A DNA stretch of 64,000 nt, taken from the NCBI GenBank assembly GCA_038150265.1, contig JAYOTF010000004.1:70760-134759 (forward strand), written 5' to 3'. This DNA comes from Deltaproteobacteria bacterium (GTDB lineage Bacteria; SAR324; NAC60-12). Every line of letters begins with the position of its first letter. Positions within the stretch are counted from its first letter, which is position 1. The translations under genes were made by a program, and so were the position numbers. This document shows positions 1-64,000 of the stretch, one piece after another. The notes below the pieces were generated by a model that made no database searches, was not told the origin of the DNA, and worked only from the letters and a program-made list of their open reading frames with translations.

Positions 1-481
1 GTTTCAGGTACGGATGCAGCCGAGTCAGAAACTCCGGACTCATCAGGCGGTTCTTGGCATGCCCTTTTTTGGGCCAGGGGTCCGGAAAGTTCACATGAAG
101 CACATCCAGTGACTCAGGCGTCAGGTAGTCATCCAGGAACTCCCCGCGCTCCCGCAGCAGCAGCACGTTGGCCAGACCGCCTCGCTTGAGCTTGCGAGCG
201 GCCAGGGCCAGGCGCTTGTAGCGCAGCTCCATGCCCAGAAACAGATCCTGCGGATGCGCTTCAGCCCAGCGAATCAGGTACCGTCCGGAGCCACAGCCAA
301 TTTCCAGATGCAGGCGCTCAGGCGCATGCTCCGCCTGCCAGGCGGGAAACGCCTTTGGGTCCGGGTGCACCCAGATCCACTCCGGGTACTCATACACCTC
401 CTTGAGGTAGGGATTGTTTTGAGTCTGCCGCAGAAACTCTTCCGGGTCCTGGGTCCGGACATCAGGAGTACGGTAACGCAT
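1..481 (-). CDS. trmB: tRNA (guanine-N7)-methyltransferase, partial (3' end runs off the window)
   Basis: Manual translation (absent from the ORF track): MRYRTPD...LEIGCGSGRYL...FLGMELRYKR...VNFPDPWPKKGHAKNRL. Contains the SAM motif EIGCGxG and the TrmB FPDPWPK motif. Confidence 0.92.
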   Translation of the reverse strand, partial: MRYRTPDVRTQDPEEFLRQTQNNPYLKEVYEYPEWIWVHPDPKAFPAWQAEHAPERLHLEIGCGSGRYLIRWAEAHPQDLFLGMELRYKRLALAARKLKRGGLANVLLLRERGEFLDDYLTPESLDVLHVNFPDPWPKKGHAKNRLMSPEFLTRLHPYLK

Positions 482-1140
482 TGAAGAAAAAAGAGATTAC
501 AGTTGGTTGGAAGGTCAAGCAGGTTCGCTTTCTGGAAAGTGGGGAAGTCGTGGTTGATTTTGCTGATGACGCCCCGTCAGCGCGGCTGGACTACCTGGCC
601 TGGAGCGACCTGGCTCTGCCCCGGGAGGAAGCGATCACCTCCGAGCAGCATGCTCAGCTGGAAGCCGCCGTCTGGCGCTGGACGGTCCGGGAACGCGCGC
701 TGGCCCTGCTGGCGTCTCGCGAACACTCACGCTGGGAGCTGCGCCAGAAGCTCCGGCAGCGCTTTGACGCCCCGGAGTTGATCGACACCTGCCTGGACGA
801 CTTGCAGGAACGCGGTTACCAGAGCGATGAACGCTTTGCCCGGAGCTTCCTGGAGTCTCGCCTGCACTCACGCGACCAGGGGCCCTTCCGGCTGGTCGGG
901 GAGCTGCAGCAGCGTGGCATCTCCCGGGAACTGGCGGAGCGCCTGCTTGGCCAGCACCAGAGCCCGTCCCTGTGGCTCGAAAAAGCCCGCCGCGCGCGGG
1001 ACAAGGCCCTCAAGCGTCTGAAGCCCGGACAGCCTCAGCACAACCTCTGGAACAAGCTCTACCAGCAGGGCTTCTCCCGTGACATCATTGAGCAGGTCAT
1101 GGGCGAGCTTCCGGATGACGCGGACGCGCGCTTTTCCTAA
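481..1140 (+). CDS. recX: Regulatory protein RecX (start uncertain: TTG 481 or GTG 550)
   Basis: ALALLASREHSRWELRQKL, GYQSDERFARSF, GPFRLVGELQQRGI and LYQQGFS are RecX three-helix repeat motifs. Confidence 0.88.
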   Translation: MKKKEITVGWKVKQVRFLESGEVVVDFADDAPSARLDYLAWSDLALPREEAITSEQHAQLEAAVWRWTVRERALALLASREHSRWELRQKLRQRFDAPELIDTCLDDLQERGYQSDERFARSFLESRLHSRDQGPFRLVGELQQRGISRELAERLLGQHQSPSLWLEKARRARDKALKRLKPGQPQHNLWNKLYQQGFSRDIIEQVMGELPDDADARFS

Positions 1141-2285
1141 AGGCTCCGGCCGATCAGCTCCTTCATGACCTCGTTGCTGCCCCCGTAAATTTTCTGGACG
1201 CGCGCGTCAGTGTACATGCGGGCAATCGGGTACTCGTTCATGTATCCGTACCCTCCATGAAGCTGCAGGCAGGCGTCCACGATTTCATTCTGCTTCTGGG
1301 TGCACCACCACTTTGCCATTGAGGCCGTTTCGTTGTCCAGCTCCCCCCGGCACAGGCGCTCAATGCAGGAGTCCAGAAAGACCCGGGCAATGTGCGTCTC
1401 GGTCTTGCATTCGGCCAGGGTGAAGCGAACGGTCTGCAGGTCCAGGAGTCGTTTGCCAAACGCCTCGCGGTTCCGGGTGTGTTCCACCGTGATGGCCACC
1501 GCATGCTCCATCGCCGCAACGCCCGCCACTGCCAGGGCCAGACGCTCCTGCGGAAGCTGCTGCATGAGGTAGTAGAAGCCCTTGCCTTCCTCGCCCAGCA
1601 GATTGGCAACGGGCACCCGCGCATCGTCAAAGAACAGCTCCGAGGTGTCTGCCGCCTTCATGCCCATCTTGTCAAGGTTCCGGCCCCGCTGGAATCCGGG
1701 CGTGTTTTCGGTCTCCACCACCAAAATGGAGATGTTCCGGGAGCCCTTGCCTTCTCCGGTCTTCACACAGAGCAGAATCAGGTCGGCATGCTGTCCATTC
1801 GTGATGAAGGTCTTGGCGCCATTGACCACATAGGTGTCGCCCTCTCGGACCGCTCGGGTCTGGATGTTCTGCAGGTCCGAGCCGGCCCCGGGTTCGCTCA
1901 TGGCAATCGCAGACACCCGCTCGCCCGAGGCCAGTTGCGGCAACCAGCGCTGCTTCTGCTCCTCAGTGCCGTAGTGCAGCAGGTAGTGCGGACAGATGGT
2001 GCTGTGCACCGGGTACCCCAGGTTTCCGCCGATACCGGATTTTTCGAGCTCCTCAATGACCACGGCTTCATGCGCAAAGGTGCCCCCCACGCCCCCATAC
2101 GCTTCCGGAATGCTTGGCAGCAGCAGGCCCATCTCTCCGGCCTGATTCCAGGCCTCGCGGTCCACCTGTCCCTGCGCCAGCCAGCCCTCAAGCCTGGGGA
2201 CAAATTCACGCTCCAGAAACTTGCGGGTGGTCTCGCGGAGCAGGCGCAGTTCCTCCGTTTCCCAAGTCGGGGTATAGGCTTTCAT
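1137..2285 (-). CDS. Acyl-CoA dehydrogenase (long-chain-like)
   Basis: IAMSEPGAGSDLQ, NGAKTFITNG, LQLHGGYGYMNEYPIARMYTDARVQKIYGGSNE. Confidence 0.95.
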   Translation of the reverse strand: MKAYTPTWETEELRLLRETTRKFLEREFVPRLEGWLAQGQVDREAWNQAGEMGLLLPSIPEAYGGVGGTFAHEAVVIEELEKSGIGGNLGYPVHSTICPHYLLHYGTEEQKQRWLPQLASGERVSAIAMSEPGAGSDLQNIQTRAVREGDTYVVNGAKTFITNGQHADLILLCVKTGEGKGSRNISILVVETENTPGFQRGRNLDKMGMKAADTSELFFDDARVPVANLLGEEGKGFYYLMQQLPQERLALAVAGVAAMEHAVAITVEHTRNREAFGKRLLDLQTVRFTLAECKTETHIARVFLDSCIERLCRGELDNETASMAKWWCTQKQNEIVDACLQLHGGYGYMNEYPIARMYTDARVQKIYGGSNEVMKELIGRSL

Positions 2286-2361
2286 GATGCAACTCCGTAA
2301 AATGATGGCAGGCGCGGGTTCTCCCGCAGTAGCTTAAGTGCAACCCCCAAAAAGAACAACC

Positions 2362-3234
2362 ATGGAACCTCCTGCTCCGTTCTACCTGGGATGCCCCGAG
2401 TGGGCCAATGCCGACTGGCGCGGAAGCCTCTTTCCGGAAGGGGCCAAACCTGCGGACTTCCTCCGCGGGTACGCCTCCGTCTTCAATACCGTTGAAGGCA
2501 ACACCACCTTTTACGCCTTGCCCCGAGCCGAGATCATCGCCCGCTGGAAGGACGAAACTCCGGAGACCTTTCGCTTCTGCCTGAAGATGCCCCAGCGGCT
2601 TTCGCATGAACTCCGGCTGCAGGGCGTCGAGGCCGACCTGACCCAGATGTTCCGGACCTTTGCTCCGCTGGAGAGCCGGCTGGGCCCCTTGTTCCTGCAA
2701 CTCCCAGCGTCGTTTGGCCCCCGGGACCTTCCGGCGCTTGAGGCCTTTCTGGAGCAGCTTTCTGCCGACTTCCGCTATGCCGTCGAGGTTCGGCACCCGG
2801 AGTTCTTTTCCCGAGGTCCGGCCGAAAACCGGCTCGATGCCCTCCTGCAGCGGCACCAAGTGGCACGGATGGTCTTTGACACCACCGAGCTGTATTCCAG
2901 CACCGAGACGGATCCGGACACGCGTGAGGCCCAGCGCAAGAAACCACGGGTGGCGTTCCGGGACACCGTGACCACCGACCACGCGCTGGTCCGTTACGTT
3001 GGGCACCTGGAGGACTCGCGGAACCTGCCGGCGCTCCACCGCTGGGCCGATCAGGTCGCCCGCTGGATTCAGGCGGGCCTCACCCCGTGGTTCTTTGTGC
3101 ACACGCCGGGGGACCGGACGGCTCCGGAGCTGGCCCAGACGTTTCACCAGCTTGTTCGGCAGCGGCTCCCAGAGCTTCCGGAGCTGCCCGCATTTCCGCA
3201 GGATCCGGAGGCCGCCCAGCTGAGCCTCTTCTGA
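2362..3234 (+). CDS. DUF72 (YecE-like) family protein
   Basis: YASVFNTVEGNTTFYALP, FRFCLKMP, LFLQLPASF, AVEVRHPEFF, FFVHTP. Confidence 0.88.
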   Translation: MEPPAPFYLGCPEWANADWRGSLFPEGAKPADFLRGYASVFNTVEGNTTFYALPRAEIIARWKDETPETFRFCLKMPQRLSHELRLQGVEADLTQMFRTFAPLESRLGPLFLQLPASFGPRDLPALEAFLEQLSADFRYAVEVRHPEFFSRGPAENRLDALLQRHQVARMVFDTTELYSSTETDPDTREAQRKKPRVAFRDTVTTDHALVRYVGHLEDSRNLPALHRWADQVARWIQAGLTPWFFVHTPGDRTAPELAQTFHQLVRQRLPELPELPAFPQDPEAAQLSLF

Positions 3235-3240
3235 AACGCG

Positions 3241-4545: not shown

Positions 4546-4602
4546 GGTTCCTCCTTGGAAATCAGGTGAGAGGGGGATCTGACGATCCCGTTGGGCGGGA
4601 AA

Positions 4603-7600
4603 TCAGGTGGCTTCCGGAGCCGTGTAGCCTGCAGGCGCGACGCCCACTTGGTTGCCGCCTTGCTCCTGAGCGAGGTCAACGGCATGCTCCACCGCCAGGA
4701 TCAGGTTCTTGCGGGTCAGGGAGTCGGTCAGCGCTTCCGGATAAGACGCCACCCCCATGGTCACGCTGACCTTGAAGTGTGTGTCCTTCCAGACAAAGTC
4801 GAAGGCCTGGATGTCATCGTGGATCTTCTGGGCAAAGTCCTGGGCGGCGATGGAGTCCATGCCCTTCATGGCCACAATCAGCTTCTCACCAAAGTAGCGG
4901 GACGGGATGTCGCTCTTCCGGCAGTGATTCTGGACCAGGGTCGCCAGCTGCTTGATGACGTAGTCGCCCCCTTCAAACCCGTGGGTGTTGTTGACGTCCC
5001 GGAAGTGGTCAGGATCCACCAGCACCAGAGACAGCGGCGTTTGCCGCTTGCGGGCTTCCTTGATCAGCCCTTCCACATGCTGGGAGAAGGACTCACGGGT
5101 GGCCAGCTGCGTCAGCTCGTCCAGCTCGATCTTCTGGCTACCGGCATCCTGCTCGGCAGCCTCCAGCAGGTCTTCCACCGTCAGGGTTTCGCCTTCGCTG
5201 TCAGGGAAGGCGCCAACTCCGACACAGACGGACACATGGAAGGTCTTGTCCTCCCAGGTAAACTCGTGCTCATTGATGAGCCGCTTCACCTTGTTGGCGT
5301 AGCTCTGTGCCGCCTGTCGGTCGAGGTTCGGCAACGCAATGATGACCTTCTCACCATGGTAACGGGCCGGGACGTCAGACTTGCGGGCTTGCTCCTGCAC
5401 CACCTGGGCAAAGGTCCGGATCACCTCGTCGCCACACTCGAAGCCGTACTTGTCGTTCACCAGGTGGAAGTTATCCGGATCCACCACCACCACAGAGAGG
5501 GGGTTGTCGCTCTGCTGCGCCTTGGCCAGCAGGTCACCGAGGGTGCGCATGAAGTAGGCCCGGTTCGGAAGCTGGGTCAGGTCGTCGGTGTAGTTGTCAA
5601 TGGCGGCATCCACCTGGTTGCCCCCCTTCTCCTGGGCCAGCTCCACGGCATTCTCAGCGGCCAGCACGAGGTTCTTGCGGGTCAGGTTGTCCTTGAGCAC
5701 CTCCGGATACGAAGCCACCCCGAGGGTCACGGGCACACTGAAGTGCTCCCCACGCCAGATGAAGTCGTAGTCCATGATGTCGCGGTGGATCTGGTTCGCA
5801 AAGTCCATTGCGGCGGCGGTGTCCAGATTCCGGAGCACGACAATGATCTTCTCGCCAAAGTAACGGGCCGGGATGTCGCTCTTGCGGGTATGCTTCTTGA
5901 CCATCTTCGCCAGTTCCTGAATGACGTAGTCGCCCCCCTCAAATCCGTAGGCATTGTTGATGTTCTTGAAGCTGTCCGGATCCACCAGCACCACCGCGAG
6001 GGCATGCTGCTTCTTCTTCGCCTCCTCGGCCAGGTCGTCAAAGAGCCGGTTGAAGGTGTCGCGGGTGGCCAGCTGGGTCAGCTGATCGATCTCGATCTTC
6101 TGGGAACCGGCATCCTTTTCTGCGGCGGCAATCAGCCCCTCCACACTCAGGTTCTCCTCACCGATGTCCGGATACGACCCCACTCCGACGCTAACGGTGA
6201 CCCGGAACATCTTGTCTTCCCACACAAACTCGTGCTCATTGATCAGGCGCTGCACCTGCTGTGCGTAGTTGCGGGCGGCCTCGAGGTCGAGGTTCGGAAG
6301 GGCAATGATGACCTTTTCCCCGGTGTAGCGAGCGGGAACGTCCGCCTTGCGGGCATGGCGCTTGACGACCTCGGCAAAAGTCCGGATGACTTCATCGCCA
6401 CACTCAAACCCATACTTGTCGTTGACGAGGTGGAAGTTGTCTGGATCCACCAGCACCACCGACAGAGCGCCCTTGGTGCGCTGCGAGCGGGCCACAAAGT
6501 CGCCCAGACGCCGGAGGAAGAAGTCGTGGTCGAAGAGCTTGGTGAGGTCGTCGATGTCTTCCGGACGGACCTGCTGGAAGCCCTTGATGTGGATGTTGCC
6601 CAGCAGCTTCTTGGCCAGGTTCTGGAACGGTTCAACCGTCAGACCGACCGCGACCAGGAGCACCACCTTGAAGTAGAAGGAGTCTTCGGCCAGGTCGTCC
6701 ACATAGGGCTCTGTGGTCGCATCCAGAAACGCGAACAGGACCATGACCACGACCGCAACAATGTAGTCGGAGATGTTTTCGGAGTACCCCATGCCCCGGA
6801 GCACACCGGAGATGAGGAGCAGCACCATCAGGAAGCCCAGCTGTGCCGAGTAGAACCACCACGTTTCATACCAGGGGGGCTCCACCACAAAGGTGAAGGA
6901 CACCGGTTCACTCCGGGCCCCATCCTTCCGCATGGCCTTGACGTGGAAGACGTACTCCTTCCAGGTCAGGTTCGTGTATTCGCGGAAGGGGCGTATCGAC
7001 CACTTGGACCAGTCATCCTCCATCCCTTCAAGGTAGGTCTGGTACATGACGTCGCTCGGGTAGGTGTAGTCGTTCGAGGTAAAGGTAAAGCGAACGGCGT
7101 TCTGCTCATAGGGCAGGATCCGGGTCGTCAGCGGAGACTCGTTCCGGACCGCAATCCCACCGAGTTCCTTGAAGAAGTTTCCGGCAAAGAGGTTCACCTC
7201 GTCCTGGATGCTCTCCACCTGCCGAATGAGGGGGGTGAACTCCGGATCCTCTCGCACCAGCGGGGGGCGGGCCGAGACAAACATCTCCACATCTGGAGGA
7301 ACCGTCGGGGGCTCTTCCAGGGGGATGAAGGCATAGACACCGGCGCTGCTCGCGAGCCAGGTGTTGTCCTTGAGGTCCTGAAAGATGCTGAAGACGTTCT
7401 GCTCCGGGATGTGCATCTTCTCCAGCACCGTCACCGTCTCTTCATTGAAGTCGAGGCGGACAATGCCCACTCGGTCCACCGCAAGCAGAAACACGCCGGG
7501 CGACACCTCGGTTCGGGCGGTCACCAGGTGGTTCTCAAAGACGTCCTGATTTTCGTACTCCAAAAACGTAAAGGCTTCCCGCTCCGGAGTGCCTTCATTC

Positions 7601-8319
7601 GCCGGGGAGTCAAGAGCCGGGTCATACAGAAGCAGGCCCTTGTCCTGAGTCACCAGCAGCAGGCGCCCGCCCGGAAACGGCAGCATGGCGTGAGCCAGGA
7701 AGAAGTTCCCCTCCGGGACGTTGCGCAGAACCCCATCCACAATGCGCATCAGACCATAGTCGCTGTCCAGGACGTAGAGGGTGTCGCCGATGGGGGTCAC
7801 CTTGTAGAGGTAGCCCTCGGTTTCAATTTGGGTAAACACCCCATCCTTGTAGCGCAGCAGCAGCTGCTCGAACAGGAACAGCAGCTCGCCATCCGGACGC
7901 TTCAGGCTCTCCAGCAGCGGCCCCAGCAGCTCCCAGTCCTCCACCTGAATCTGGTCCTTGAGGGAGATATACGTGGTTTAGCCGTCGCTGTTCGGCGGCA
8001 GGTAGCCCAGCTCGCCGTAGCCCCCGACAAATACCCGTCCGTTGTCATCGGTGATCAGGCTGGAGCCCCCGCCATCACCAGGCATCTTGATGAGCCGCCA
8101 GGTGCTGCTGTCAAACTCATAGACCCCATTGAAGGTCGCAAAGTACATCACCCCACGGGAATCCTGAGTGGCATCCCACACCACGGGCTCCGCCTCGTAG
8201 TTGGCCACCGCGTACTGGCGCAACACGCCCACGTCCCAGCGGTCAAACGCCTGGGCGCTGCCTCCGAGCAGGAGGAGCAAGGTGATGATGATCCCGAATC
8301 CGTATCCCCAGCGCTTCAT
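4603..8319 (-). pseudogene. Membrane receptor of about 1238 codons: signal peptide, beta-propeller, Y_Y_Y domain, 3 TM helices and 4 degenerate GGDEF domains; interrupted by an in-frame TAA at 7978-7980
   Basis: ORFs 7978-8319 and 4603-7944 are in one frame, with 11 sense codons between them after the TAA. Propeller motif QDSRGVMYFATFNGVYEFD; Y_Y_Y motif YQTYLEGMEDDWSKWS..REYTNL...YVFHVKA..PPWYETWW; four GGDEF folds with TGEKV/FGEKI/HGEKV/FGEKL. Confidence 0.8.
4645..6552 (-). repeat. Intragenic tandem duplication with a 966-bp period (copies about 5611-6552 and 4645-5586), each copy encoding two GGDEF-like domains
   Basis: Matching motifs are offset by exactly 966 nt: gccacactc at 6397/5431, gtagtcgccccc at 5926/4960, DDLT codons at 6552/5586, GGNQV at 5611/4645. 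Confidence 0.9.
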
Positions 8320-11300
8320 TTACTCAATCTCAAAGGTGATGAAACGGGTGGAACGGTTGTTGACCCAGTCGTCAACCTGAATGTCGAGGGTGATGCTCCC
8401 CCGGATGGGGAGGCGGCTGATGGCCCGGCGGTACAGGCGTTTGTTGCGACCATTCAGGGAATAGAACACCTCCCGAACTCCACTTTGCGGATCCTTGGTG
8501 TCAATGTGCAGCAGGCTGCCCCGTCTGATGAAGAACTTCCCGTCACTTTCCCGGAAGGGCGGCGTGCTGCGGATCGCCACTTCCGGGTTGGTGGCATCGA
8601 CCATGAAGCTCAGGGATTTCTGTTCCTCGGTGTTGCCCACCTCATCGACCGAGTAGTAGCTCAGCTCGTACCGTCCAGTTTCCTTGATGCGGATGGGCCC
8701 CTTGTACGGCTGCTGCTTGCCGCCGTTGATGCGGTAGACCGTTTGGCGGATGCCCGCTCCTCCATCAGAAGCCAGGAGGCGGATCTCGGTGTCCGCATTG
8801 AGGTACAGCTCCCCCCGGTACAGGTACTGCGTGCCCACCACCTCATGAGACGTCACCGGAGCGGTCAGGTCGAGGTAGAAGTCCTTCGATTGCCGAGGAG
8901 TCGTGTTTCCCACCCGATCCAGCGAGCTGAAGGAGATGGTGTGCCGGCGCTCCACCTCCGGAAGCCCGAAGGTGTTGGTGTACGGCTCCATCTCGCCCGT
9001 GTCAAAGGCATAGAGGATCTTGAGGACTTCGCTGGACTTTTCCTTGGCACTGAGCGAGAAGGTCGTGGTCCGAGAGACATAGGTCCGGCCATTGTTCGCA
9101 AGGTGCTGCTCGCCCCGGACCCGCAACGAAACGGCAGGAGGCTCGTGGTCCAGCGAGAAGTTCAGCTTCCGGACCGTCTCCTTGTTCCCCACTTCATCGA
9201 CCGCGTAGTAGGTCAGCAGGTGGTCGCCTTCCGGCAGGTTCCGGAGGGTCGCTGCCGTCAGCGGACGTCGATAGAGCTGCTCGGTGCCGTTGTCAAAGGA
9301 GTAGTAGATCCCGGCCACGCCCGAGAGGCCGTCGTCAGACCTCAGCTCAATGGTGGTTTGAGAGGAGAGGGTGCTTCCGAAGAAGGCGCCTTCAACCGTG
9401 TGGGTGGTCAGGGGCGGAGCCAGGTCGATGCTGAACTCCATGGAGCGCACCTTTTCGGCATTTCCCACCTTGTCCAGGGCGTAGTAGCTGACGCGGTACA
9501 CCTTCTCGCTGAAGAAGAGCTTGATCGGCTCCTCATATTCCACAAATCCGGAGCCATCAATCGAGTAATAGAGAGCTTCCACGCCCGACTGCTTTTCCTT
9601 GCCTGCATCGCGAGCCGTCAGTTCCAGCACCAGGCCTTCACTGTAGTACGTGGTGCCCCCTCGCTCAAACTTGTTGGCCCCCTTCAGGCGAGCCGTGGTT
9701 CGAGGATCCGTGTCGTCAATGTTGATCCGGAAGAGCCGCTTGGTGCCCGGAATGCCCACCCCAAGGGCCTGAGAGCCCCCCTGGCTGAAAAACAGCGACT
9801 GCGGATCCTTGTCGTCCGGATCATAGGCCATCTGGAAGTACGGAGCATCCTCTTCCGGAGAAACCGAGAGGCGGAGGAAAAACTCCAGACCCGCGGCGCC
9901 CATGAGTCCATGCTCATCGCTCACAAACCAGTGCTTGCGGTGCGAGACCCGCCCGTCGGGACCAATGGAGCTTCCGGCCGCATCGTCTCCACCCGACTCG
10001 CCGGCACCCGCCCAGCGGGCCTGATCGACGCGGACCAGCAGCACCTGTGGTTTTTCCTGATTGTTGACGTTGTCAATGGAGTAGAAGCGGATGGTGTAGT
10101 CGCCGTCTTCACTCCAGCTCAGAGGCTGATCGTACGGCTGACACTCCTGATCGTTGATGCAGATCATCGTCTTCTCCACCCGAGATTCCAGGTCGGTGGC
10201 TTCGAAGAAGATGGAGGTGCTGGGGCCAATGATGACGGTGTCATCATTCCACGACGATGACCCGGAGATGCGGTATCCGGTGGTCGGAGGGGTGCCGTCT
10301 ACGTAGACCCGCCGGCGGTAGATGCCTTCGTTTTCCGCCTTGTCGGAAACACGGGCGCCAATCCAGTGCAGCCCGGCTTTTTGAGGAGGCAGAAAGGGAT
10401 CGGTGTACGGAATCCACTCCGCATCATCCAGGTTGTAATCGAGGCTCTTGATCTCTGAAAATTCGTCGCGGGCCACCAACCGGATGGGCGATGAGCTGGA
10501 GACGTAAACCACGCCATCTTGCCGGTATTCGCGACCCTCCACCTTGATCTCCAGCTCCGGAGGCTGGTTGTCATGCTGGAAGGGCACCGTCTGCCACGCC
10601 TCAGCGTTCTTGACCCGGTCCACGGCGCTGACGTAAAGCGTGTGGGCGCCCGGAGGAATGTCCTTCATTTCCAGTGGCTTCCGGTAGACCTGCTCCTTGC
10701 CTTCATCAATGCGGTAGCGGATCCGGTCGACTCCGGAGGCCCCATCTTCGGCCTGGAGCACCAGTCGTCCTGCTGTGGCAACCGCCCGGTTCAGGTGCGG
10801 TCCTTCCGGAATCACCTGGGTCACCGGAGCCGTCAGGTCGACCACCAGGGTCAGGTCCTGAAGCGGCTCCTCGTTGCCCACATGATCGACGGAGAAGTAC
10901 TTGAAGGTGTGCACCCCATCTACGGCCAGGTTGAGCTTGAGGCCTGCGGCAGGAACGTAGGGTTTGCCTTCATACGAGACCCAGGTCTTCCAGACTCCGG
11001 AAAGGGCATCGGTGGGGACCAGCTCAAACTGGGAGTTCTGCCCAATGAAGTCGCGCTCCGGGGTTTCGTAGGAGGGGGTCTCGGGGTAGTTGGGTTGGGT
11101 TTCCGGGGGGGTGCCGTCGCCAATGACCGTGTAGGCTTCCGACTTCACCGCCAGGTTGCGGACCAGGTTTTCCCCTTCTTTCAGCGGAATGCCGCTCTGC
11201 TCCTTGGGGTCGGGAACCGAGACCGCGTCTTCCGCCTCAGGCTGGAGCGCCAACCCGAGGAAGACCGGCTGCCGCAACGGGGCATACGTGATGCCGTCAT

Positions 11301-16067: not shown

Positions 16068-16096
16068 GAGTTTGTTCAGCAAAGGTTTGCAGCAAC

Positions 16097-16122
16097 CCCC
16101 CTCCGGAACCAGCCGAAGGGGG
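16097..16122 (-). terminator. Intercistronic stem-loop 3' of the oppA-like gene
   Basis: Minus strand CCCCCTTCGG-ctggtt-CCGGAGGGGG forms a 10-bp stem; no U-tract. Confidence 0.45.
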
Positions 16123-16135
16123 TGAGCGAGGGGGC

Positions 16136-17755
16136 TCAGTCCAGACGCCAGTTCCGGATCTGCTGGCCCCCCAGGGCCATGTGGTACCACCCCTTCACCC
16201 AGGGCTTGACCAGGTAGGACGCGGTGTAGAAGTAGAGCGGAATCATCGCCGCCTCTTCCTCGGTCAGAATCTGCTCCGCACGGTAGTAGAGCTTCTTGCG
16301 CTCCTCCGGATTGGTGGAGGCCATGGCTCGGTCCGTCAGGTCTGCAAACTCCTGGTTGTGCCAGCGCAGGCGGTTGGTGGACTTGGTGGGGTGGAAGACT
16401 TCCAGCAGCCAGTTGTTTGCATCCGGATAGTCCGCACACCAGCCAAAGCGGAACAGGTGCGGCGCGCTGGGCTCGGTGGTGGACTTCAGGTAGACCTTCC
16501 ACTCCTGATTTTCCACCTTGATGTTGATGCCGAGGTTGCGCTTGAGCATCGCCTGAACCGCCTGGGCCACCTTGGCGTGGCTTTCGGACGTGTTGTGCAT
16601 GTAGGTGATTTCCGGGAAGCCCTCGCCGTTGGGATAGCCCGCTTCCGCGAGCCACTTCCGGGCCTGTTCCGGATCATAGTGGATGCCCACGCCTTCCGAC
16701 GGATCCACCGACCCAAAAATCGGCGGACGCGTGAAGGTCGTCGCCGGCTCCTGACCTCCGCGGGTCACACGCTCCACAATCGTCTTGCGGTCAATTGCTG
16801 CCGAAATCGCCTTCCGGACCTTCGGGTTGTCCATGGGCGCCCGTTCGTTATTGATGGCCAGGTAGTAGGTGCAGAGATCCGGCTGCACCGAGAACTCGCT
16901 CCGGTACTCCTCCTTGACCCGGTTCATCTCTGCCGGCGGCATCGGCAGGTAAGACGCCCCCATCAGGTCCAGCTCATTGTTTTCGTACATCGCCAGGCCC
17001 GTGGACTCTTCCGGAATGATGTAGTAGTGCACTTCCGGAATGTAAGGCGCCAGGCCACTGACGGCATCCGAGTAGTTCGGATTGCGCTTGAGCACCAAGC
17101 GGTCGCCCTTCTTCCACTCGGCCAGGCGGTAGGAGCCGTTGGTGACAATGTTTTCCGCATTCGTCCAGCTTGTGCCATGCGCCTCAATTGCCTTGCGGGG
17201 CAACGGACGGTAGGTCCACAAGCCCGCCATGGCCGGAAAGAAGCCGGCGGGGGCATTGAGCTGAAACTCAACCGTGTAATCATCCAGGGCCTTCACCCCC
17301 AGCTGGTCCACGTCTTTTTCGGCACCGGTGTTGATGGCCTCGGCATTCTTGAGGATGTAGAGGACGTAGGCATACGGGGAGGCCGTTTCCGGGAGGATGT
17401 TCCGCTTCACGGCGTATTCAATGTCATGGGCCGTCACGGGGGTGCCATCACTCCACTTGACGCCTTCGCGCAGCTTGAAGGTGTAGGTCATGCTGTCGGC
17501 ACTCACCTGCCAGCTCGTGGCCAGCTCCGGAACCACCTCATAGGTCTTGGGGTTGTAGTCCGTGAGGCCGAGGAAGAGCTGCTCAATGACCTCAATCGAA
17601 GAGGAATCCTGAGCCACTCCGGGGTCAAGAGAAGGAATGGCCGACTGCATCGGCAGGCGCAAGAAATCGGGATGATCTGCCGCAAAAACGGTTCCCCCCC
17701 AGGCCAGAGCGGCCACGAGGGTGCCCGTCATGAGCGAACGAAGGCTGTGTGTCAT
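16136..17755 (-). CDS. oppA: Oligopeptide ABC transporter substrate-binding protein (family 5)
   Basis: SLDP, PELATSWQVS..YTFKLREGVKWSDGTPVTAHD, NGSYRLAEW, VRKAISAAIDR, GWCADYPDA. Confidence 0.9.
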   Translation of the reverse strand: MTHSLRSLMTGTLVAALAWGGTVFAADHPDFLRLPMQSAIPSLDPGVAQDSSSIEVIEQLFLGLTDYNPKTYEVVPELATSWQVSADSMTYTFKLREGVKWSDGTPVTAHDIEYAVKRNILPETASPYAYVLYILKNAEAINTGAEKDVDQLGVKALDDYTVEFQLNAPAGFFPAMAGLWTYRPLPRKAIEAHGTSWTNAENIVTNGSYRLAEWKKGDRLVLKRNPNYSDAVSGLAPYIPEVHYYIIPEESTGLAMYENNELDLMGASYLPMPPAEMNRVKEEYRSEFSVQPDLCTYYLAINNERAPMDNPKVRKAISAAIDRKTIVERVTRGGQEPATTFTRPPIFGSVDPSEGVGIHYDPEQARKWLAEAGYPNGEGFPEITYMHNTSESHAKVAQAVQAMLKRNLGINIKVENQEWKVYLKSTTEPSAPHLFRFGWCADYPDANNWLLEVFHPTKSTNRLRWHNQEFADLTDRAMASTNPEERKKLYYRAEQILTEEEAAMIPLYFYTASYLVKPWVKGWYHMALGGQQIRNWRLD

Positions 17756-39187: not shown

Positions 39188-39419
39188 CCGCAATCACTTC
39201 GGTTTGATCGCCCCAGCAGCCAAAGTGACCCGGGGAAGGTGAGAGAATCCGTTTTGGGAATTCTTGAATAACGCTAACCACTTCAGACTGCAAGCGCAGC
39301 CTTGCTTCGCTGATAAATCATTGCATCCGCATTTAGTGATTTGATTCTTGAGCTTTGGCCCAAATCCTGTGATGATGGCGTTTTCTTTTCACTGCCATTT
39401 CAGAATCAACGGAGTCCGT

Positions 39420-40727
<1,308 letters not shown>

Positions 40728-41914: not shown

Positions 41915-42489
41915 CGCTTCCGGAGCGCAAGCAGGCCCTCCGGGACGATCTGCGTCGCCAGCGTCGGGACTGGGCCCCCTCGCACCGCTCAAACGCCTCT
42001 GCGCACCTGCTCCAGCACCTGCGGCAGGCCCCCGGCTACGCAACGCTGCAGCGCCTCCACCTCTTCCTCGGCCTGGCAGATGAACCCGACACGCAGTCCT
42101 GGCTTCCCGAACTTTGGGCTGACGGCAAGCAAGTGAGCGTCCCGTGTGTGGTTCCCGGAACGGCGGAGTTGGAGCACGCCCGCCTGAATCCGGACACTCC
42201 GCTGGTCCCTGGCGCCTGGGGGCTGCTGGAACCGCCTCCGGAGCAGCGCGATCCCGTTCTGGCCAACTGGGCAGACTGGATCCTTGTTCCCGGCCTGGCC
42301 TTCGATCGGCAGGGAGGACGTCTTGGGTACGGCAAGGGCTTTTACGACCGCTTTCTGGAGACGGCTTCCGGACGCACCCTCGGCGTTGGGTTCGCCTTTC
42401 AGGTGGTTCCGGAGGTCCCGTGCGAGGCCCATGACGTTCCGCTACACGGGCTGCTCACCGAGCAGGGCTTGAGCTGGTTGCAGCCATGA
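41911..42489 (+). CDS. 5-formyltetrahydrofolate cyclo-ligase
   Basis: KQALR, EP, LVPGLAFDRQGGRLGYGKGFYDRFL, EAHDVPL; ATGA overlap with the upstream gene. Confidence 0.93.
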   Translation: MTLPERKQALRDDLRRQRRDWAPSHRSNASAHLLQHLRQAPGYATLQRLHLFLGLADEPDTQSWLPELWADGKQVSVPCVVPGTAELEHARLNPDTPLVPGAWGLLEPPPEQRDPVLANWADWILVPGLAFDRQGGRLGYGKGFYDRFLETASGRTLGVGFAFQVVPEVPCEAHDVPLHGLLTEQGLSWLQP

Positions 42490-48150: not shown

Positions 48151-49806
48151 TTAAAGGGTTTTGCCGCATCGGAACCCGGTATCGGGCCATGCGAGATTCG
48201 GGCGGGTGTGCCCACGGTAGTAACCGGCAGCCTCAAACGCATTGAACGCCCAGGATGACCCCCGGACGACCCGCTCCACGCCTCCGGCCTCAGAGGCTCC
48301 GGAGGTGTAAGGCCGGTAGTGATCGGCGACAAACTCGCGGACGTTTCCCGACAGGTGCATCACGCCTTCTGGCGTTACGTCCCGGTTCCGCTCATTGACC
48401 GACACCGAGCCCTCGGCTCCGGACTCGCGCGTGACCGCAAAGTTGGGCGCAAAGCCGGTTCCATTCCAGGGGTACTTGCGGCCCTTGGGTCCCCGAATGG
48501 CGCGCTCCCATTCGATCTCAGTCAGCAGGCGCTTGCCCACATACTGGCAATAAAACTTGGCATCTTCCCACGTCACGCCCACCACCGGGTGATCGGCCTG
48601 ACCATCTGGGTAGCGTCCCTCCTGCCAGCCGACGGGCTCTCGGTGCCCGGTCCGCTGCACAAACTCGTAGTACTGATCCTGGGTCACCTCCCGGATGTCA
48701 ATCAGGAAGGCCTTCACCCGCACCGTCCGTTCAGGCGAGGAGTCGCTGTAGAGCGGATCGTTGCTGCCCATCACAAACACACCTCCGGGAATCAGCACCT
48801 GGTCCTTGGCATCCTGTGGCTTGCGCTGCTGGAGCTTCTTCGTGAAGGGGTTCACCAGCGCGGTCTGCTCCCGGAGCGGCACCCCGAACTTGATCAGGTC
48901 CGCCCAGAAGATCACTCCGGTGTAGATGCTCATCATCTTCAAGGACGCCACCAGCTCGCCGTCTGGACGCGTGTTGATGGAGCCATAGACAAAGGCGTCC
49001 ACCCCATACAGCTCTCCCAGGCGACGGGCCTGGTTTTCGTCAATAAAGGCGGCCGTGTTGAGCTTCTGCTCTTGGTAGATGAGCTTGAGGTTCTCACGGT
49101 CCACCACGCTCAGCAGAGACTCCTGAGAGATGGCCACGGTCAGGTAGTCCATGACCTCTTCAGAGGTGAAGGATTTGGGCGTGTCGATGCTCCAGAAGCT
49201 CACCCGCCGGATCTTTTCTTCCTTGAGGCGGTCCTCGTCGCGCCGGAGGGAGTCGATGAACTTGCCGTTGAGGTCATTGAGCAGCAGGTAGTGGTCGCGC
49301 TCCTCAAAGAGCGGGAAGGCGTCGGCCCAGACGATGGAGGAGTTCTGCACATCAATCGCCTTGAGGATCAGGGTCTCCTTGTAGATGGAGCCGTAGATGA
49401 ACAGCTGCACCCCCAAAATGTTCCCCAGCTCCCGGTACTCGTTGGGGGTGACAAATTCGGAAAGCTGAATGCGCTGCTCCTGAAGAATCAGCTGCAGCTT
49501 CGAGCGATCCGTCACCCGAAAGCGCTGGGTCCGGACCACCTTGACGTTGATGTAGTCAATCAGCTCATTGATGTTGAGGTTGAGCTGGGTGTTTTCCAGC
49601 TTGATCCGGGAGATGGCCAGGGTCGTGAACTGAGCTGGAACGGAGCGTTGAATGGAGTTGGCCACGCGTCCTGCAACGGCCTCATTGTCGACAAACAGAT
49701 TTTGAGTTCCTTGAGCGACAGCGGGGCTCACAAGTCCACTCAGCAGCCAGCTGAGCCCAAGGAGCGCCGTCAGGAGGCGAGTCAGAGCGTGATGGTTTTT
49801 CAGCAT
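48151..49806 (-). CDS. Secreted protein with two CsgG/TolB-N-like domains and a C-terminal FGE-sulfatase (SUMF1-like) domain
   Basis: Twice DRxxLxLIxQEQ...LGx(I/L)xGV..F(I/V)YGSI; then IPGGVFVMGS, EVT, HPVVGVTWEDA..YC...KRLLTEIEWERA, GNVREF, RGSSW, GFRC. Confidence 0.8.
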   Translation of the reverse strand: MLKNHHALTRLLTALLGLSWLLSGLVSPAVAQGTQNLFVDNEAVAGRVANSIQRSVPAQFTTLAISRIKLENTQLNLNINELIDYINVKVVRTQRFRVTDRSKLQLILQEQRIQLSEFVTPNEYRELGNILGVQLFIYGSIYKETLILKAIDVQNSSIVWADAFPLFEERDHYLLLNDLNGKFIDSLRRDEDRLKEEKIRRVSFWSIDTPKSFTSEEVMDYLTVAISQESLLSVVDRENLKLIYQEQKLNTAAFIDENQARRLGELYGVDAFVYGSINTRPDGELVASLKMMSIYTGVIFWADLIKFGVPLREQTALVNPFTKKLQQRKPQDAKDQVLIPGGVFVMGSNDPLYSDSSPERTVRVKAFLIDIREVTQDQYYEFVQRTGHREPVGWQEGRYPDGQADHPVVGVTWEDAKFYCQYVGKRLLTEIEWERAIRGPKGRKYPWNGTGFAPNFAVTRESGAEGSVSVNERNRDVTPEGVMHLSGNVREFVADHYRPYTSGASEAGGVERVVRGSSWAFNAFEAAGYYRGHTRPNLAWPDTGFRCGKTL

Positions 49807-57374: not shown

Positions 57375-57377
57375 ATC

Positions 57378-58166: not shown

Positions 58167-58172
58167 AAATTT

Positions 58173-58197
58173 CCGAAAACCCCGCTTTTCGGTTGTT
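58173..58197 (+). terminator. Intrinsic terminator after trpA
   Basis: CCGAAAA-ccccgc-TTTTCGG followed by TTGTT. Confidence 0.5.
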
Positions 58198-58310
58198 GCC
58201 CGCCCGCATAACGCGTATCCTTAAAAGGATTAATTTTTGCTGGCTTTTTGAATCAGAAATGAAAATCATTTCCTGATTCTCTCATTTCTTGATTTCCCTG
58301 AGACTCCACC

Positions 58311-60646: not shown

Positions 60647-60822
60647 GCCATCTCCTCTTTCATGAATGATAGGTTTCTCTGAGACCAAAACATCAGGCCT
60701 CCAGCGTTCGGGAACTCCCGGAAAGCGGCAAGGCAAAACCCTGGCACTTGAGTCTTGGGCTCGCCTCGCTTTTACTGATGGCAGTTGAAGAACAACGCCC
60801 TCCCCCTTACGTCAAAGAAGCC

Positions 60823-63420
60823 ATGCGCCATCGCCTCCTCTCGCTCCTCCTGTTCCTCTTTCTCAGCGGCTGCCTGGTGCGTCCGGCTCCGGAAACCCAG
60901 GAAGGACGGCTGCAGGCGGCCATCCGCATTGCTCCAGAAAACGAACACGGCTACGTCCGGCTTGCCGACCTCTACCGCTCTGAGCGCCGCTTTGAAGACG
61001 CCCTGAGTGTTTTGGAGATCGGGCACCAGCGGGTTCCGGACTCGTCGCTGATCCGCCGCCTTCAGGCCAACCTGCTGGCCGCCCGGAACGTGCCCCAGGC
61101 CCTGAGGGTCTACCAGGTGCTGCTTGAGGAGACGCCGGACGACGAAGACCTGCGGCTCGACTACGCCCAGTTGCTGGTTCGGGCCGGGCAGCGACCCGAG
61201 GCCCGGGCGCAGCTGGAGCGGTTGCAGGAGAGCGGCAGCGAGCAGGCCAACGTCTTTTTGCTGTATGGCCTGCTGAACCTGCAGGAAGATCGGCTCGGTT
61301 TGGCCCAGGAAGCCTTGGTGGAAGCCGTTCGGCTCGATGAGGAAAACCCGGAAGCCTGGGCTGAGCTGGGACGCCTCTGGGAGCGGCAGGGGGAGTGGGG
61401 ACGCGCCCAGGAGTCGCTGCGCCGCGCGGTGGAGTTGGCTCCGGAGTCCGAAGAATTCCTGCGTCGCTTCATCACGGCTCAGGAGCGCCTGCTCGACCCC
61501 AAGGATCCGGACGCGGTTCTGCAGCTCGGACACACGCTGGAGCACCTCCGGGAACTGGCTCCGGAACGCGCCTGGACGCAAGCCCACTATGGCGAATTCC
61601 TGCACCGAACCGGACGTCCGGAGGAAGCGGAGGCTGAATTCCGGAAGGCGCTGGAGGCCTCTCCGCAGTACGCGTGGGGGTGGTTCCGGCTTGGAGGGTT
61701 GCTGCTGGAGCAAGGCCGCCCGGAAGAGGCGAAGCAGGCGCTGGAGACCGGGCTTCAGGAAGAGCCCGAAACACCATGGGCCCTGCAGCAACTGGCGCTG
61801 GCTGATGAGCAGCTGGGACGTCTGGACGAAGCGCGGCAGCGGTATGAGGCGCTCTTGCAGCAAGAAGCCTCGCTCCCTGTGCTGCGCCGCCTGCTGGAGC
61901 TGCACTGGGCGGAGCTCCGCTTTGATGCCATTCAGTCGACTCTGGAACAGGGCGTGGAACTGTTCCCCAAGGTCCCGGCGCTGCGGCTCGAGCTTGCGCA
62001 GTTTCTCGACCGCCGAGGTCGATACGAAGCCGCCCGGACCGCCTTTGAAGCCCTTCCTCGTTCTGGCGCCCGGGCGGACTTCTTCATCCAGCTCGGACGC
62101 CTCTCTCGGCTTGCCGACGACCTTCCCCAGGCGGAGCTGGACTTCCGGCAGGCCCTGCAGCTGGACCCCAAGGCTCAGTTGGCCCGCATGCAGCTCATTG
62201 AGCTCTTCCGGCAGGAAGAACGTCCCCTCGCGCTGGAAACCGAGCTGACCACCTTCCTGCAGCAGGAGCCCGACTCCGAATGGGGCGCGCTTCAGCAGGC
62301 GCAGTGGCTCCGGAAGTCAGGCCCGGCGGCCGCCTTCTCTGCTTATGTGGCAGCAACCGCTCCTCGCTTTCCGGACTCCCTTTCCTTGCAATTGCTTGAG
62401 GTTGAGCGCCTCCGGGCGCAGCAGCAGGAAGCTCAGGCCCTGGTGCTCCTCCAGACGCTTCAGGAGCAGGCTCCCCAAAATGAGGACCTCTTCAATGAGC
62501 TCGCCGTCCTGCAGTTCAATCAGGGAAATCCGGATGCGGCGAAGCAGGCCCTGCTGCGTTCCCTGGAGCTTTCCGGCTCCAACCTCTGGCCCTTGATGCA
62601 GCTGGTCCTTCAGCTTCCGGAAGCGCAGCAGCAGGCGTGGTTTGGCCACCAGGTCGAGGTCCGGCAGGCGTGGGCCCTCTTGATCCAGAACCTTCCAGAG
62701 CCCGTGTTTCCGGAAGCCCTGGACCCGCCAGCCCAGCAGGGTTTGGCCGTGCTGCACCACGCGTTGCAGCAGACGGCTCTTCCGGAGAACACTCCGGTTG
62801 CCGGCACAGCCCCGTGGTTTCAATTTGCGGAAGCGGTCCGTCTTGAGAAGCAACCGGCCGAGGCCGCCACCGCTTACGATCAGTTGCTGCAGCACCCGGC
62901 CCTTCCGGAAGCCTTGCGTCCGTGGGTGCAGGCACGGGCGGCAATGGTGCTTGAGCGCTCCGAACAGCCGGGTCCTGCGGCCGAACGCTATGCAGCTGTG
63001 CTCGCGGCTCACCCTCAGGCCACCTGGGCCTTGCTGCGGCAGGCCATTGCCCTGACTCATGCCGGCCGTGAGGCCGACACCATTCCCCTCTATGAGGCCC
63101 TGCTGAAGCAAAACCCGAATCACCCGATGATTCTGAACAACCTGGCCTGGATCTACCTCACTCACCCAGATCCCGCCCAGCGACGTCCGGAGCGCGCGCT
63201 GAAGCTGGCAGAACAGGCCGTGGCTCAAGAGGGATCGATTGATCACTGGGACACCCTCGCCGAGGCGTGGTTCCAGAATGGAGAGGCCTCGAAGGCCATT
63301 GAGGTGCTCCGTCAGGCCGTCCGGGAGACCCCGTTTCCGGAGTCACGGGAGTCGTACCTTCAGGCGCAGTACCAGCGCTTCCGGAGTGGAAACCCGCAGG
63401 TGCCTCCTCCCGCCGTCTGA
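60823..63420 (+). CDS. Large TPR-repeat lipoprotein
   Basis: Lipobox LSGC; many TPR units; C-terminal LNNLAWIYL...ALKLAEQAV...WDTLAEA. Confidence 0.88.
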   Translation: MRHRLLSLLLFLFLSGCLVRPAPETQEGRLQAAIRIAPENEHGYVRLADLYRSERRFEDALSVLEIGHQRVPDSSLIRRLQANLLAARNVPQALRVYQVLLEETPDDEDLRLDYAQLLVRAGQRPEARAQLERLQESGSEQANVFLLYGLLNLQEDRLGLAQEALVEAVRLDEENPEAWAELGRLWERQGEWGRAQESLRRAVELAPESEEFLRRFITAQERLLDPKDPDAVLQLGHTLEHLRELAPERAWTQAHYGEFLHRTGRPEEAEAEFRKALEASPQYAWGWFRLGGLLLEQGRPEEAKQALETGLQEEPETPWALQQLALADEQLGRLDEARQRYEALLQQEASLPVLRRLLELHWAELRFDAIQSTLEQGVELFPKVPALRLELAQFLDRRGRYEAARTAFEALPRSGARADFFIQLGRLSRLADDLPQAELDFRQALQLDPKAQLARMQLIELFRQEERPLALETELTTFLQQEPDSEWGALQQAQWLRKSGPAAAFSAYVAATAPRFPDSLSLQLLEVERLRAQQQEAQALVLLQTLQEQAPQNEDLFNELAVLQFNQGNPDAAKQALLRSLELSGSNLWPLMQLVLQLPEAQQQAWFGHQVEVRQAWALLIQNLPEPVFPEALDPPAQQGLAVLHHALQQTALPENTPVAGTAPWFQFAEAVRLEKQPAEAATAYDQLLQHPALPEALRPWVQARAAMVLERSEQPGPAAERYAAVLAAHPQATWALLRQAIALTHAGREADTIPLYEALLKQNPNHPMILNNLAWIYLTHPDPAQRRPERALKLAEQAVAQEGSIDHWDTLAEAWFQNGEASKAIEVLRQAVRETPFPESRESYLQAQYQRFRSGNPQVPPPAV

Positions 63421-63725
63421 CTCTGGGCAGTTTTTGCCACCCTTCTGGCCCGTCTCGGGCTCCAGACCTCAGGAGCCGAGAGTCTGGTGAAGTTTTTTTG
63501 TGCCGGACGTGGGGCCCAGCAAATAAATAATTTTGACCGAATGGGCTTAAATCCTCTTAGACTTCAGAGCACTAAGCCACTTCTCCCTGAGCCCAGGCGG
63601 AGGGTTCCCGCTGCAACCCGGCACAGGACTCTCGAACTGGAGTTGCTTTTGCAACAATGGACTCAAAAAATCCAGGAACTCCTGCTTGAGCAGGGAGTGC
63701 CAAGGAACTGCAATCGTAGACCGGC

Positions 63726-64000
63726 ATGTACATCATGAGAGCATTCGGGGCTGTCCTCGCAACAATTCCACTCCTTCTGGTTGGCTGTGCCGACCCAGAC
63801 ACCCAGCAACCCTCTCCCACCTTCTACTATGACGTCGGTGGAGTCGTCCGGGGGCTGGATGGGTCCGTCAACCTCGAAAACAACGGAACCGACGGCATCG
63901 TGGTTGCCAGCAGCGGCGCCTTTGTTTTTCCTCAAAACATTGCGGCCAACAACGGCTACAGCGTCACCGTCAAGACCCAGCCGGCCCGACAGACCTGCTC
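63726..64000 (+). CDS. Lipoprotein with an Ig-like surface domain, partial (runs off the window; start 63726 or 63735)
   Basis: Manual translation MRAFGAVLATIPLLLVGC...VGGVVRGLDGSVNLENNG...GAFVF...GYSVTVKTQPARQTC, with lipobox LVGC. Confidence 0.7.
   Translation, partial: MYIMRAFGAVLATIPLLLVGCADPDTQQPSPTFYYDVGGVVRGLDGSVNLENNGTDGIVVASSGAFVFPQNIAANNGYSVTVKTQPARQTC

Follow-up and report, generated by a model that had tools for sequence, protein, structure and literature searches.

Highly iterated palindromes (HIPs) are short words that recur in a genome far more often than its composition would allow. The best-described examples are HIP1 (GCGATCGC) and the alternate HIPs of cyanobacteria, including rCCGGy of Oscillatoria PCC 10802 (available text of PMC4390886 and PMC5861425). 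No explanation for HIPs has emerged in thirty years, and they have been regarded as a peculiarity of cyanobacteria. Here we describe a word of this kind in another phylum, the hexamer TCCGGA of a SAR324 bacterium (Deltaproteobacteria bacterium, NCBI GenBank assembly GCA_038150265.1), starting from a stretch of 64,000 nucleotides of contig JAYOTF010000004.1 (positions 70,760 to 134,759 of the forward strand; hereafter the window). Like HIP1 and the alternate HIPs, TCCGGA is a short, GC-rich and hyper-abundant palindrome that occurs in genes and between them, is clade-wide with exceptions and is conserved over controls; the HIPs and TCCGGA alike are without an agreed function, and a CCGG core is found in one alternate HIP too. 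The copies of TCCGGA, in addition, follow a spacing rule with the 10.5-bp period of the DNA helix, and this rule exists in two opposite versions among close relatives. The literature covered, which did not extend to subscription journals and supplements, contains neither an account of TCCGGA over-representation nor one of an iterated palindrome phased with the helix, and nothing was found on palindromes or methylated motifs in SAR324. The available text of PMC4390886 contains neither TCCGGA nor the words 'spacing' and 'periodic', and that of PMC5861425 makes no mention of 'helical' or 'bp periodicity' for HIP1.

In the window, TCCGGA occurs 209 times, compared with 24.36 +/- 4.72 in 100 dinucleotide-preserving shuffles (maximum 35; 0/100 reach 209), and the window-wide excess claimed in the original prediction is thereby borne out. 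The density is 3.27 sites per kb, ranging from 3 to 11 per 2 kb, with 196/209 sites within called genes and 13/209 outside. The hand counts that accompanied the claim, for three dense stretches and for the sparse ahcY gene (Table 1), are exact. The similar hexamer ACCGGA, said to appear about twice in the first of these stretches, is indeed rare there, the exact number being three when its complement TCCGGT is included, and the GC content, put at roughly 64%, is 61.7% when measured.

The genome that contains the window (G000; 3,393,712 bp in 87 contigs, GC 61.2%, 97.8% complete) holds 9,711 TCCGGA sites, or one per 349 bp. With 19,422 counts on both strands the palindrome is the top word of its length, followed by its own overlapping neighbours and then by CAGCAG (9,274), the next unrelated word, which it exceeds twofold. 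The excess over composition is large: the observed/expected ratio (O/E) is 8.67 at order 0, 7.57 under a Markov model of order 1 (Markov 1), 3.95 under Markov 2 and 2.39 under Markov 3. The maximal-order Markov ratio of 1.22 is uninformative, because that model uses the pentamers TCCGG and CCGGA, which are inflated by the motif itself. The original prediction had set the word against an equal enrichment of all NCCGGN hexamers; the remaining ones reach an O/E of only 0.78-2.28 (Markov 1), the one-off words CCCGGA/TCCGGG being enriched 2.3-fold. The core unit is the hexamer, because all 16 NTCCGGAN octamers are enriched (5.3-17.2-fold, TTCCGGAA highest); the flanks show a mild T/A preference (A at +1 0.32 versus about 0.19) and no further consensus. 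Sites are evenly spread, with a mean of 14.45, a variance of 16.4 and a minimum of 3 in 5-kb windows, which is near-Poisson and leaves no motif-free islands, and close to start codons (within 30 bp) their density is lower, at 1.2-1.5 per kb. Several small contigs (C61, C63, C78, C83-C85) carry 0.4-1.5 sites per kb versus 2.9 genome-wide and may be recently acquired or mis-binned DNA.

The excess is independent of coding and composition. Genes were taken from our own self-trained codon-usage caller, a crude one, which yields 2,637 open reading frames (ORFs) of at least 90 amino acids covering 86% of G000. Site density is 2.94 per kb inside genes versus 2.37 per kb outside, and the non-coding DNA has 1,091 sites where 177 are expected (6.1-fold). 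Inside genes, where the original prediction had named codon shuffling as a control, 8,623 sites stand against 2,062 +/- 41 in 10 synonymous-codon shuffles (4.2-fold, 158 standard deviations), a conservative null because the motif itself shapes codon usage. All three codon phases contribute, with 2,023/2,363/4,237 sites versus 514/722/826 after within-gene synonymous shuffling (3.3-5.1-fold), and amino-acid usage is, as had been supposed, insufficient as a cause. The phases assigned to single genes are likewise correct, as seen at sites 284 (phase 0, the left-end ORF, called trmB in the original prediction), 1110 (nnT-CCG-GAn, recX) and 2651 (nTC-CGG-Ann, DUF72) of the window. The word is present at 8,623/20,921 positions where the amino-acid sequence permits it (41.2%; by phase 0.34, 0.38 and 0.49). 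Compared with codon-usage expectation, the codon-pair tables show TCC-GGA at 4.2x, nnT-CCG-GAn at 8.6x and GTC-CGG-Ann at 4.3x, with TCC-GGC at 0.42. Synonymous sites at 41% of a proteome's permitted positions can, then, be occupied by a DNA-level signal, and the motif is relevant to codon-usage models, as well as to the binning and gene calling of these uncultured bacteria, which are abundant in the ocean.

The placement of the copies relative to one another follows the DNA helix. In the spectrum of site-to-site distances in G000, a 10.5-bp peak with 55-63 times the power of the median is about as strong as the 3-bp coding peak; its best-fit period is 10.50-10.55 bp. The peak is missing for CCGG outside TCCGGA (5.4x) and for half sites (3.7x), and likewise for 8 other words, among them CTGCAG, GGCGCC, TGGCCA, GGATCC, CCCGGG, GCCGGC and TCCAGA; the general AA/TT periodicity of the genome lies at 11.1-11.2 bp and is distinct from it. 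The rule acts on the DNA and not on the protein level: permitted positions are aperiodic (3.7x), and the probability that both members of a pair are realised, given that both are permitted, is periodic (35x). The phase remains constant near whole turns (-0.06 turn) to about 300 bp, while the phasing statistic R declines from 0.137 (18-60 bp) to 0.05 (201-300 bp). Pairs spanning different genes are phased as well (R 0.089, nR2 6.7). Repeats are not the cause, as similar flanks occur in 17/3,300 pairs and R is unchanged after their removal. Close neighbours are excluded, with pairs at 11-17 bp at 0.26 of expectation.

Comparison of whole-turn with half-turn distances, in pairs matched modulo 3, reveals that the rule comes in two versions. 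The relative G018 follows the same-face rule more strongly than G000 (R 0.379, phase -0.03, nR2 23.4; 614 sites in 400 kb), with distance peaks at 20-21, 29-33, 41-42 and 51-54 bp. In the whole genomes of genus g12 and of G001, pairs at 41-42 bp are far under expectation, a deficit from which a half-turn excess was predicted and then tested. At 41-42 versus 47-48 bp, the pairs number 99/39 in G000, 47/31 in G002, 400/112 in g11 (18 genomes summed) and 40/17 in g4 (3 genomes), as against 17/40 in G001 and 14/103 in g12 (3 genomes); at 52-53 versus 58-59 bp, the corresponding counts are 71/34, 45/18, 231/84 and 38/19, as against 20/36 and 12/101. Whole turns are preferred in G000, its congener G002, g11 and g4, half turns in G001 and g12. 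Relative to the Poisson expectation N2/L, same-face pairs reach 0.12-0.26 in G013 and about 0.5 in G001, and half-turn pairs reach 1.3-1.45 in G013 and about 1.0 in G001. The phases in sampled DNA are -0.46 turn in G013 (762 kb; R 0.186, nR2 16.6; peaks near 26, 37, 48 and 58 bp), -0.39 in G001 (797 kb; R 0.119, nR2 7.1) and -0.09 in G002 (373 kb; R 0.169, nR2 6.5). Median protein identity to G000 is 90% for G002, 73% for G001, 59% for G013 and 56% for G018; because G001 is congeneric with G000, the rule has flipped between close relatives. Same-face and opposite-face species thus offer a natural genetic contrast for finding whatever reads the word; in a search for genes that link G001 to G013 more closely than to G000, the top outlier among 132 genes sampled in both (~5% of genes) is 80% identical between the two and about 31% identical to G000, and it yielded no lead.

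The distribution of the trait was followed in 45 species genomes of the family and 88 genomes of the phylum, with the reversed word as control. The own genus of the window, g1, has 7,726-9,711 sites per genome and g12 has 5,254-7,675; enriched among the 45 family genomes are g1, g12, g4, g6 and most of g11. No enrichment is seen in the sister genus g2 (9 genomes, 407-842 sites versus 415-840 for the control) or in g5, g8 and g9, which are genera with large genomes. In sampled DNA the Markov-1 O/E is 6.8 in G002, 5.8 in G001, 6.7 in G013 (GC 56.8%) and 8.9 in G018; as G018 belongs to another genus and has a GC content of 43.3%, the trait does not depend on base composition. The non-enriched relatives G014 (52 kb), G009 (65 kb) and G019 (91 kb) have a TCCGGA O/E of 0.74-1.36, and in these small samples no alternate palindrome takes its place, no palindromic hexamer with at least 10 sites exceeding 3.3-fold and rarer AT-rich ones reaching 3.9. 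The word is thus common to related genomes. Within g11, most species have 10-30 times the control, and five (G034, G042, G043, G046 and G033; 51-59% complete) show little or no excess, with 185-281 sites versus 118-179; these low-excess species would provide the sharpest contrast for locating the responsible gene.

Elsewhere in the phylum the picture is different. Enrichment is lacking in the sister family f2 and mild in some genera of f7. In G083, G084, G086 and G087 (3.1-3.4 Mb) the word is nearly purged, with 15, 25, 31 and 76 sites versus 1,435-1,728 for the control. The small genomes G021 and G026 (1.6-1.7 Mb) have 37-40 sites, and each yields 16 matches to a query with MT1, a putative methylase of G000 described below. 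Further lineages with near-elimination include G081, G085, G023, G067 and G068. The same word is, in other words, hoarded or purged within one phylum.

Conservation of individual sites was assessed in 290 orthologue pairs of G000 and G002 (105,954 codons; nucleotide identity 82%, four-fold-site identity 0.497). Of the G000 sites in conserved amino-acid context, 427/790 are also sites in G002. Retention by phase is 0.44, 0.63 and 0.53 versus 0.30, 0.36 and 0.23 from independent codon evolution, that is 1.5-2.3 times codon drift, and of the permitted positions that lack the word in G000, 0.13-0.30 carry it in G002. Sites are therefore kept above expectation in orthologues, where the original prediction had suggested looking, and with copies in all phases and in intergenic DNA, common to related genera and conserved above codon drift, its description of the signal as HIP-like is upheld.

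What maintains such a word? We tentatively favour, at a little under an even chance, the reading that TCCGGA is a HIP-like, lineage-wide tag that is read in pairs by a putative site-specific protein. Pair-reading is favoured because the spacing rule belongs to the exact hexamer, because helical coherence extends over ~300 bp, because close neighbours are excluded, and because the rule is inverted between sister species. The tag would be maintained, within genes as well as between them, at roughly one copy every 350 bp, and its reader would probably be a dimeric, self-associating DNA-binding protein or enzyme. Proteins on neighbouring copies could interact up to about 300 bp apart by side-by-side contact, bridging or looping; as a consequence, copies would build up on helix faces that favour each other and would be excluded at 11-17 bp. 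The contact geometry, or the sign of selection on it, would differ by lineage and so produce two dialects, one same-face and one opposite-face. The function may lie at the level of the chromosome, in compaction, bridging or self-marking, and the most concrete working model would be the CCGG-family nucleases, which often bind two copies at once. Among the mechanisms offered in the original prediction, a protein-read or chromosome-organising site is the one we favour, because the spacing rule is exact-hexamer, DNA-level and 10.5-bp; a CCGG/TCCGGA methylase with biased repair, another of the three, is unsupported, as set out below, and the third, an uptake or self-marking signal, is less likely but possible.

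A number of observations weigh against pair-reading. AT/GC content around the sites has no helical periodicity (amplitude under 1.2%), and so there is nothing like a wrapping code. Nor did a reader turn up: a histone fold (PF00808) was not found in G000, and the PF07832 model (Bse634I/Cfr10I) matches 0/45 family genomes but also 0/14 control genomes and is therefore uninformative, the NgoMIV, EcoRII-C and Kpn2I-like models not having been searched. The window alone is too small for the phasing to be detectable (74 pairs at 18-130 bp, R 0.02): 28/74 pairs are no more than 1.5 bp off a multiple of 10.5, versus 21 by chance, which is not significant. The phasing statistics of G002 and G001 are modest (nR2 6.5 and 7.1), and related genomes are non-independent samples. 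Turnover is high, in that 363/790 G000 sites in conserved context have no matching site in G002; single copies are therefore dispensable, even as density is maintained. Sites whose only neighbour is on the same face are kept in 71/151 cases and those with only an out-of-phase neighbour in 36/66 (Fisher p = 0.38), a null result for selection on pairs. Finally, conservation above the codon-drift expectation could equally result from a mutational or repair drive that persists.

A more far-reaching version of pair-reading is possible, if rather unlikely. It holds that the word encodes a chromosome architecture in the sequence: an abundant protein would couple TCCGGA copies, its geometry having flipped at least once, from the same to the opposite face, and this protein may be a domesticated dimer or tetramer resembling a CCGG-family nuclease, with the copies perhaps also serving as a kin mark in an arms race with TCCGGA-cutting nucleases. 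The possible role as kin mark is suggested by the near-purging of the word in the other lineages named above.

The foremost rival explanation, which we consider unlikely, is methylation-linked biased repair or gene conversion, as in Elhai's model of HIP1, whereby a resident methyltransferase would mark TCCGGA or its CCGG core, near-matches would be converted to sites by repair that relies on the mark, and the copies would have no individual function. It is in keeping with the co-occurrence of HIPs and cognate methyltransferases, including that for rCCGGy in Oscillatoria PCC 10802 (available text of PMC4390886), with the fast turnover of sites at a held density, with the enrichment of the one-off words CCCGGA/TCCGGG, and with the presence of MutS in G000. 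The genome also has two PF01555-like genes, MT1 on contig C45 and MT2 on contig C51. MT1 is a putative methylase of 258 amino acids with an SPPY motif near its N-terminus, and its start overlaps the stop codon of the gene for a retron-type reverse transcriptase. Apart from a fragment in G002, MT1 is confined to G000 and G001 (71% identity), and it was rejected as the determinant of the motif for being retron-linked and restricted to G000/G001. At its locus (L081:2-3159 of C45), the reverse transcriptase matches NCBIfam models of retrons St85/Ec67 (E 4e-59) in a frame that is open at the locus edge, and an ORF of 311 amino acids without a family match lies downstream of MT1.

MT2 (C51:248-1387) is a conserved orphan gene with motif I (DPFMGGGT) followed after about 180 residues by SPPYPGTYDY, which contains the SPPY of motif IV. 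The best PDB sequence match at its SPPY region is a DNA cytosine-N4 methyltransferase (E 1.7e-5), in favour of a methylation drive. The predicted structure (pLDDT 84) points elsewhere: VIA-align ranks Trm11 (Z 18.8), TrmN (17.1) and Trm14 at the top, with generic methylases at about 15-16, and Foldseek returns generic methylases including Dam/DpnM and Trm11. Since the predicted fold ranks tRNA m2G methyltransferases first, MT2 may not act on DNA. The gene is single-copy in 33/45 family genomes, including 7/9 of the non-enriched g2 as well as g5 and g9, and the insert between its motifs is conserved across enriched and non-enriched lineages; as its presence does not track enrichment, MT2 is ruled out as the sole cause of the trait. 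Its mixed-charge, low-complexity N-terminal extension lengthens with TCCGGA density across genera: ahead of a conserved anchor there are about 45-72 residues in the non-enriched G006, g2 and f2, 99 in G010, 148 (K/E-rich) in G012, 229 in G013, 308 in G001 and 373 in G002, the last with about a dozen RPRREDRPRYED-type repeats. The low-GC genus has a K/E-rich extension, and in G000 the extension is cut by the contig end (locus C51:1-1387). This correlation is a lead and not evidence, since the lineages are related.

The remaining components of a methylation drive did not turn up. G000 has no match to PF00145 (C5 methylase), PF02384, PF07669 (Eco57I-type methylase) or PF03852 (Vsr), all of which matched in control genomes, nor to PF02976 (MutH), for which the control in E. 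coli matched; PF05063 (MT-A70) gave no match either, but its control was likewise silent, which makes this search uninformative. The commonest near-cognates at permitted positions are CpG-transition products (TCT-GGA 1.62x, nnT-CCA-GAn 4.74x), and TCTGGA/TCCAGA have an O/E of 1.51 (Markov 1), so that deamination products are enriched rather than removed. Such near-cognates fit ordinary site decay and therefore count against Vsr-like repair. A methylation drive alone predicts no helical spacing rule, and still less opposite rules in congeneric species.

It is quite improbable that the word serves mainly as a watermark for self-identification or DNA uptake, by which the cell, its competence machinery or a nuclease would tell own from foreign DNA. 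The even, near-Poisson spread of the sites would suit such a role, and a 2026 study of HIP1 argues for a methylation-dependent uptake or watermark sequence (available text of PMC13756078). A ComEC-type competence domain is present in G000, though the same domain is also matched in 10/14 control genomes. The near-purging of the word elsewhere in the phylum points in the same direction: TCCGGA-specific nucleases may be common in the surroundings of these organisms, which would make the word a meaningful mark of identity. On the other hand, known uptake sequences are longer and non-palindromic, whereas TCCGGA has no extended consensus beyond its mild T/A flanks, and the readers of uptake and Chi-like sequences act on single strands or while translocating, which predicts no face-of-helix rule.

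There is little likelihood that the intrinsic mechanics of the DNA suffice, with a bendable or bent TCCGGA tuning curvature or supercoiling, either reader-free or through a type IIA topoisomerase. The period does equal the helical repeat of relaxed DNA, the phase is constant to about 300 bp, and bends add up on the same face and cancel on opposite faces. Type IIA topoisomerases cut with a 4-base stagger. Against this, the phasing is exclusive to the exact hexamer, AT/GC content is not periodic around the sites, the general AA/TT period is a different signal, and a switch of phase within one genus, at 73% median protein identity, is hard to derive from physics alone. That the excess is a compositional or coding artefact of codon usage, amino-acid pairs or dinucleotide bias has virtually no chance and is refuted, as the low maximal-order Markov ratio in its favour comes from motif-inflated pentamers, while the excess persists over synonymous shuffles in all phases and in non-coding DNA, is equal at GC 43% and 61%, and is absent from the sister genus g2.

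The features of the window that bear on the motif are collected in Table 1, together with two further proteins encoded on the minus strand. An Rfam scan of the window gave no matches. Other words of G000 also depart from expectation. The genome avoids CTAG (O/E 0.14) and the hexamers CATATG, CCTAGG, ACTAGT, TCTAGA and ATGCAT (0.09-0.24), and over-represents GTAGTA/TACTAC (9.7x, Markov 1) and TAGTAG (4.8x). An octamer family built around TCGGCAA(T/A), comprising ATTGCCGA, TTTGCCGA and TTGCCGAA, occurs at 3.6-4.0 times the order-3 expectation.

Table 1. Features of the 64,000-nucleotide window, with positions counted from its first letter
Feature	Position	Strand	Basis
TCCGGA, 209 copies in the whole window	1..64000		counts versus shuffles
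Dense stretch, 13 copies, three codon phases represented	1..3240		counts; Pfam gene names
Left-end ORF, in the first dense stretch			
recX, in the first dense stretch	481-1140		Pfam
Acyl-CoA dehydrogenase gene, in the first dense stretch	1137-2285		Pfam
DUF72 gene, in the first dense stretch	2338-3234		Pfam
Protein of 1,113 amino acids with four tandem GGDEF domains	4603-7944	-	Pfam (E 4e-121, 4 stretches)
Dense stretch, 8 copies, within a family-5 solute-binding protein gene (16136-17755, minus)	16081..17100		counts; Pfam
ahcY (S-adenosylhomocysteine hydrolase), sparse, 2 copies in 1.38 kb	39348..40727	+	counts; Pfam
Two copies 41 bp apart (~4 helical turns), illustrating a same-face pair	42367..42413		
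Protein of 551 amino acids, CsgG/LpoB-like lipoprotein module plus C-terminal FGE-sulfatase (formylglycine-generating enzyme-like) domain	48151-49806	-	
Dense stretch, 10 copies, 3' part of a TPR-repeat protein gene (60748-63420)	62281..63420		counts; Pfam

Several known systems resemble TCCGGA in part. In very-short-patch repair by Dcm/Vsr of E. coli (CCWGG), repair can make the target of a methylase more frequent, and the likeness ends there: no Dcm-type methylase or Vsr was found in G000, nor are T:G-derived neighbours depleted as would be expected. DNA-uptake sequences (DUS), uptake signal sequences (USS) and Chi are, like TCCGGA, short words that are over-represented genome-wide, shared by a lineage and, in the case of TCCGGA possibly, a mark of self. 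DUS and USS are asymmetric and about 9-12 bases long and Chi is strand-oriented, whereas TCCGGA is a symmetric hexamer with all 16 flank combinations enriched. To our knowledge, no face-of-helix spacing has been described for DUS, USS or Chi.

The GATC system of gamma-proteobacteria (Dam/SeqA/MutH) offers a parallel in density and geometry. TCCGGA, at one copy per 349 bp, is found near the chance density of a tetramer, like GATC, and SeqA prefers paired sites that share a face of the helix. Unlike GATC, TCCGGA is a hexamer enriched 8-fold to reach that density, MutH was not found, a Dam-type enzyme is not demonstrable, and some lineages prefer opposite faces. A further parallel is with the CCGG-family type II endonucleases, namely Kpn2I, Cfr10I, Bse634I, NgoMIV, BsaWI, Ecl18kI and SgrAI, which are symmetric dimers and in many cases two-site enzymes (available text of PMC6344858 and PMC2978343). 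Kpn2I cuts the very word, T/CCGGA, and six enzymes of the family require a second copy of their site (available text of PMC6344858). These enzymes read the same word or its core pairwise, the kind of reading that a helical spacing rule implies; unlike restriction targets, which are normally depleted, TCCGGA is enriched here. The question of function becomes a search for a protein whose binding depends on whether copies lie 21/42 or 26/47 bp apart.

TCCGGA differs from HIP1 in belonging to another phylum, in being a hexamer and not an octamer, and in that a cognate methyltransferase is not demonstrable. The periodicity reported for HIP1 is one of 10-90 kb only (available text of PMC5861425), and that of TCCGGA is 10.5 bp, with two opposite phases by lineage. 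What TCCGGA adds to the HIP1 story is a spacing rule that follows the helix at base-pair resolution and that comes in two opposite versions in close relatives.

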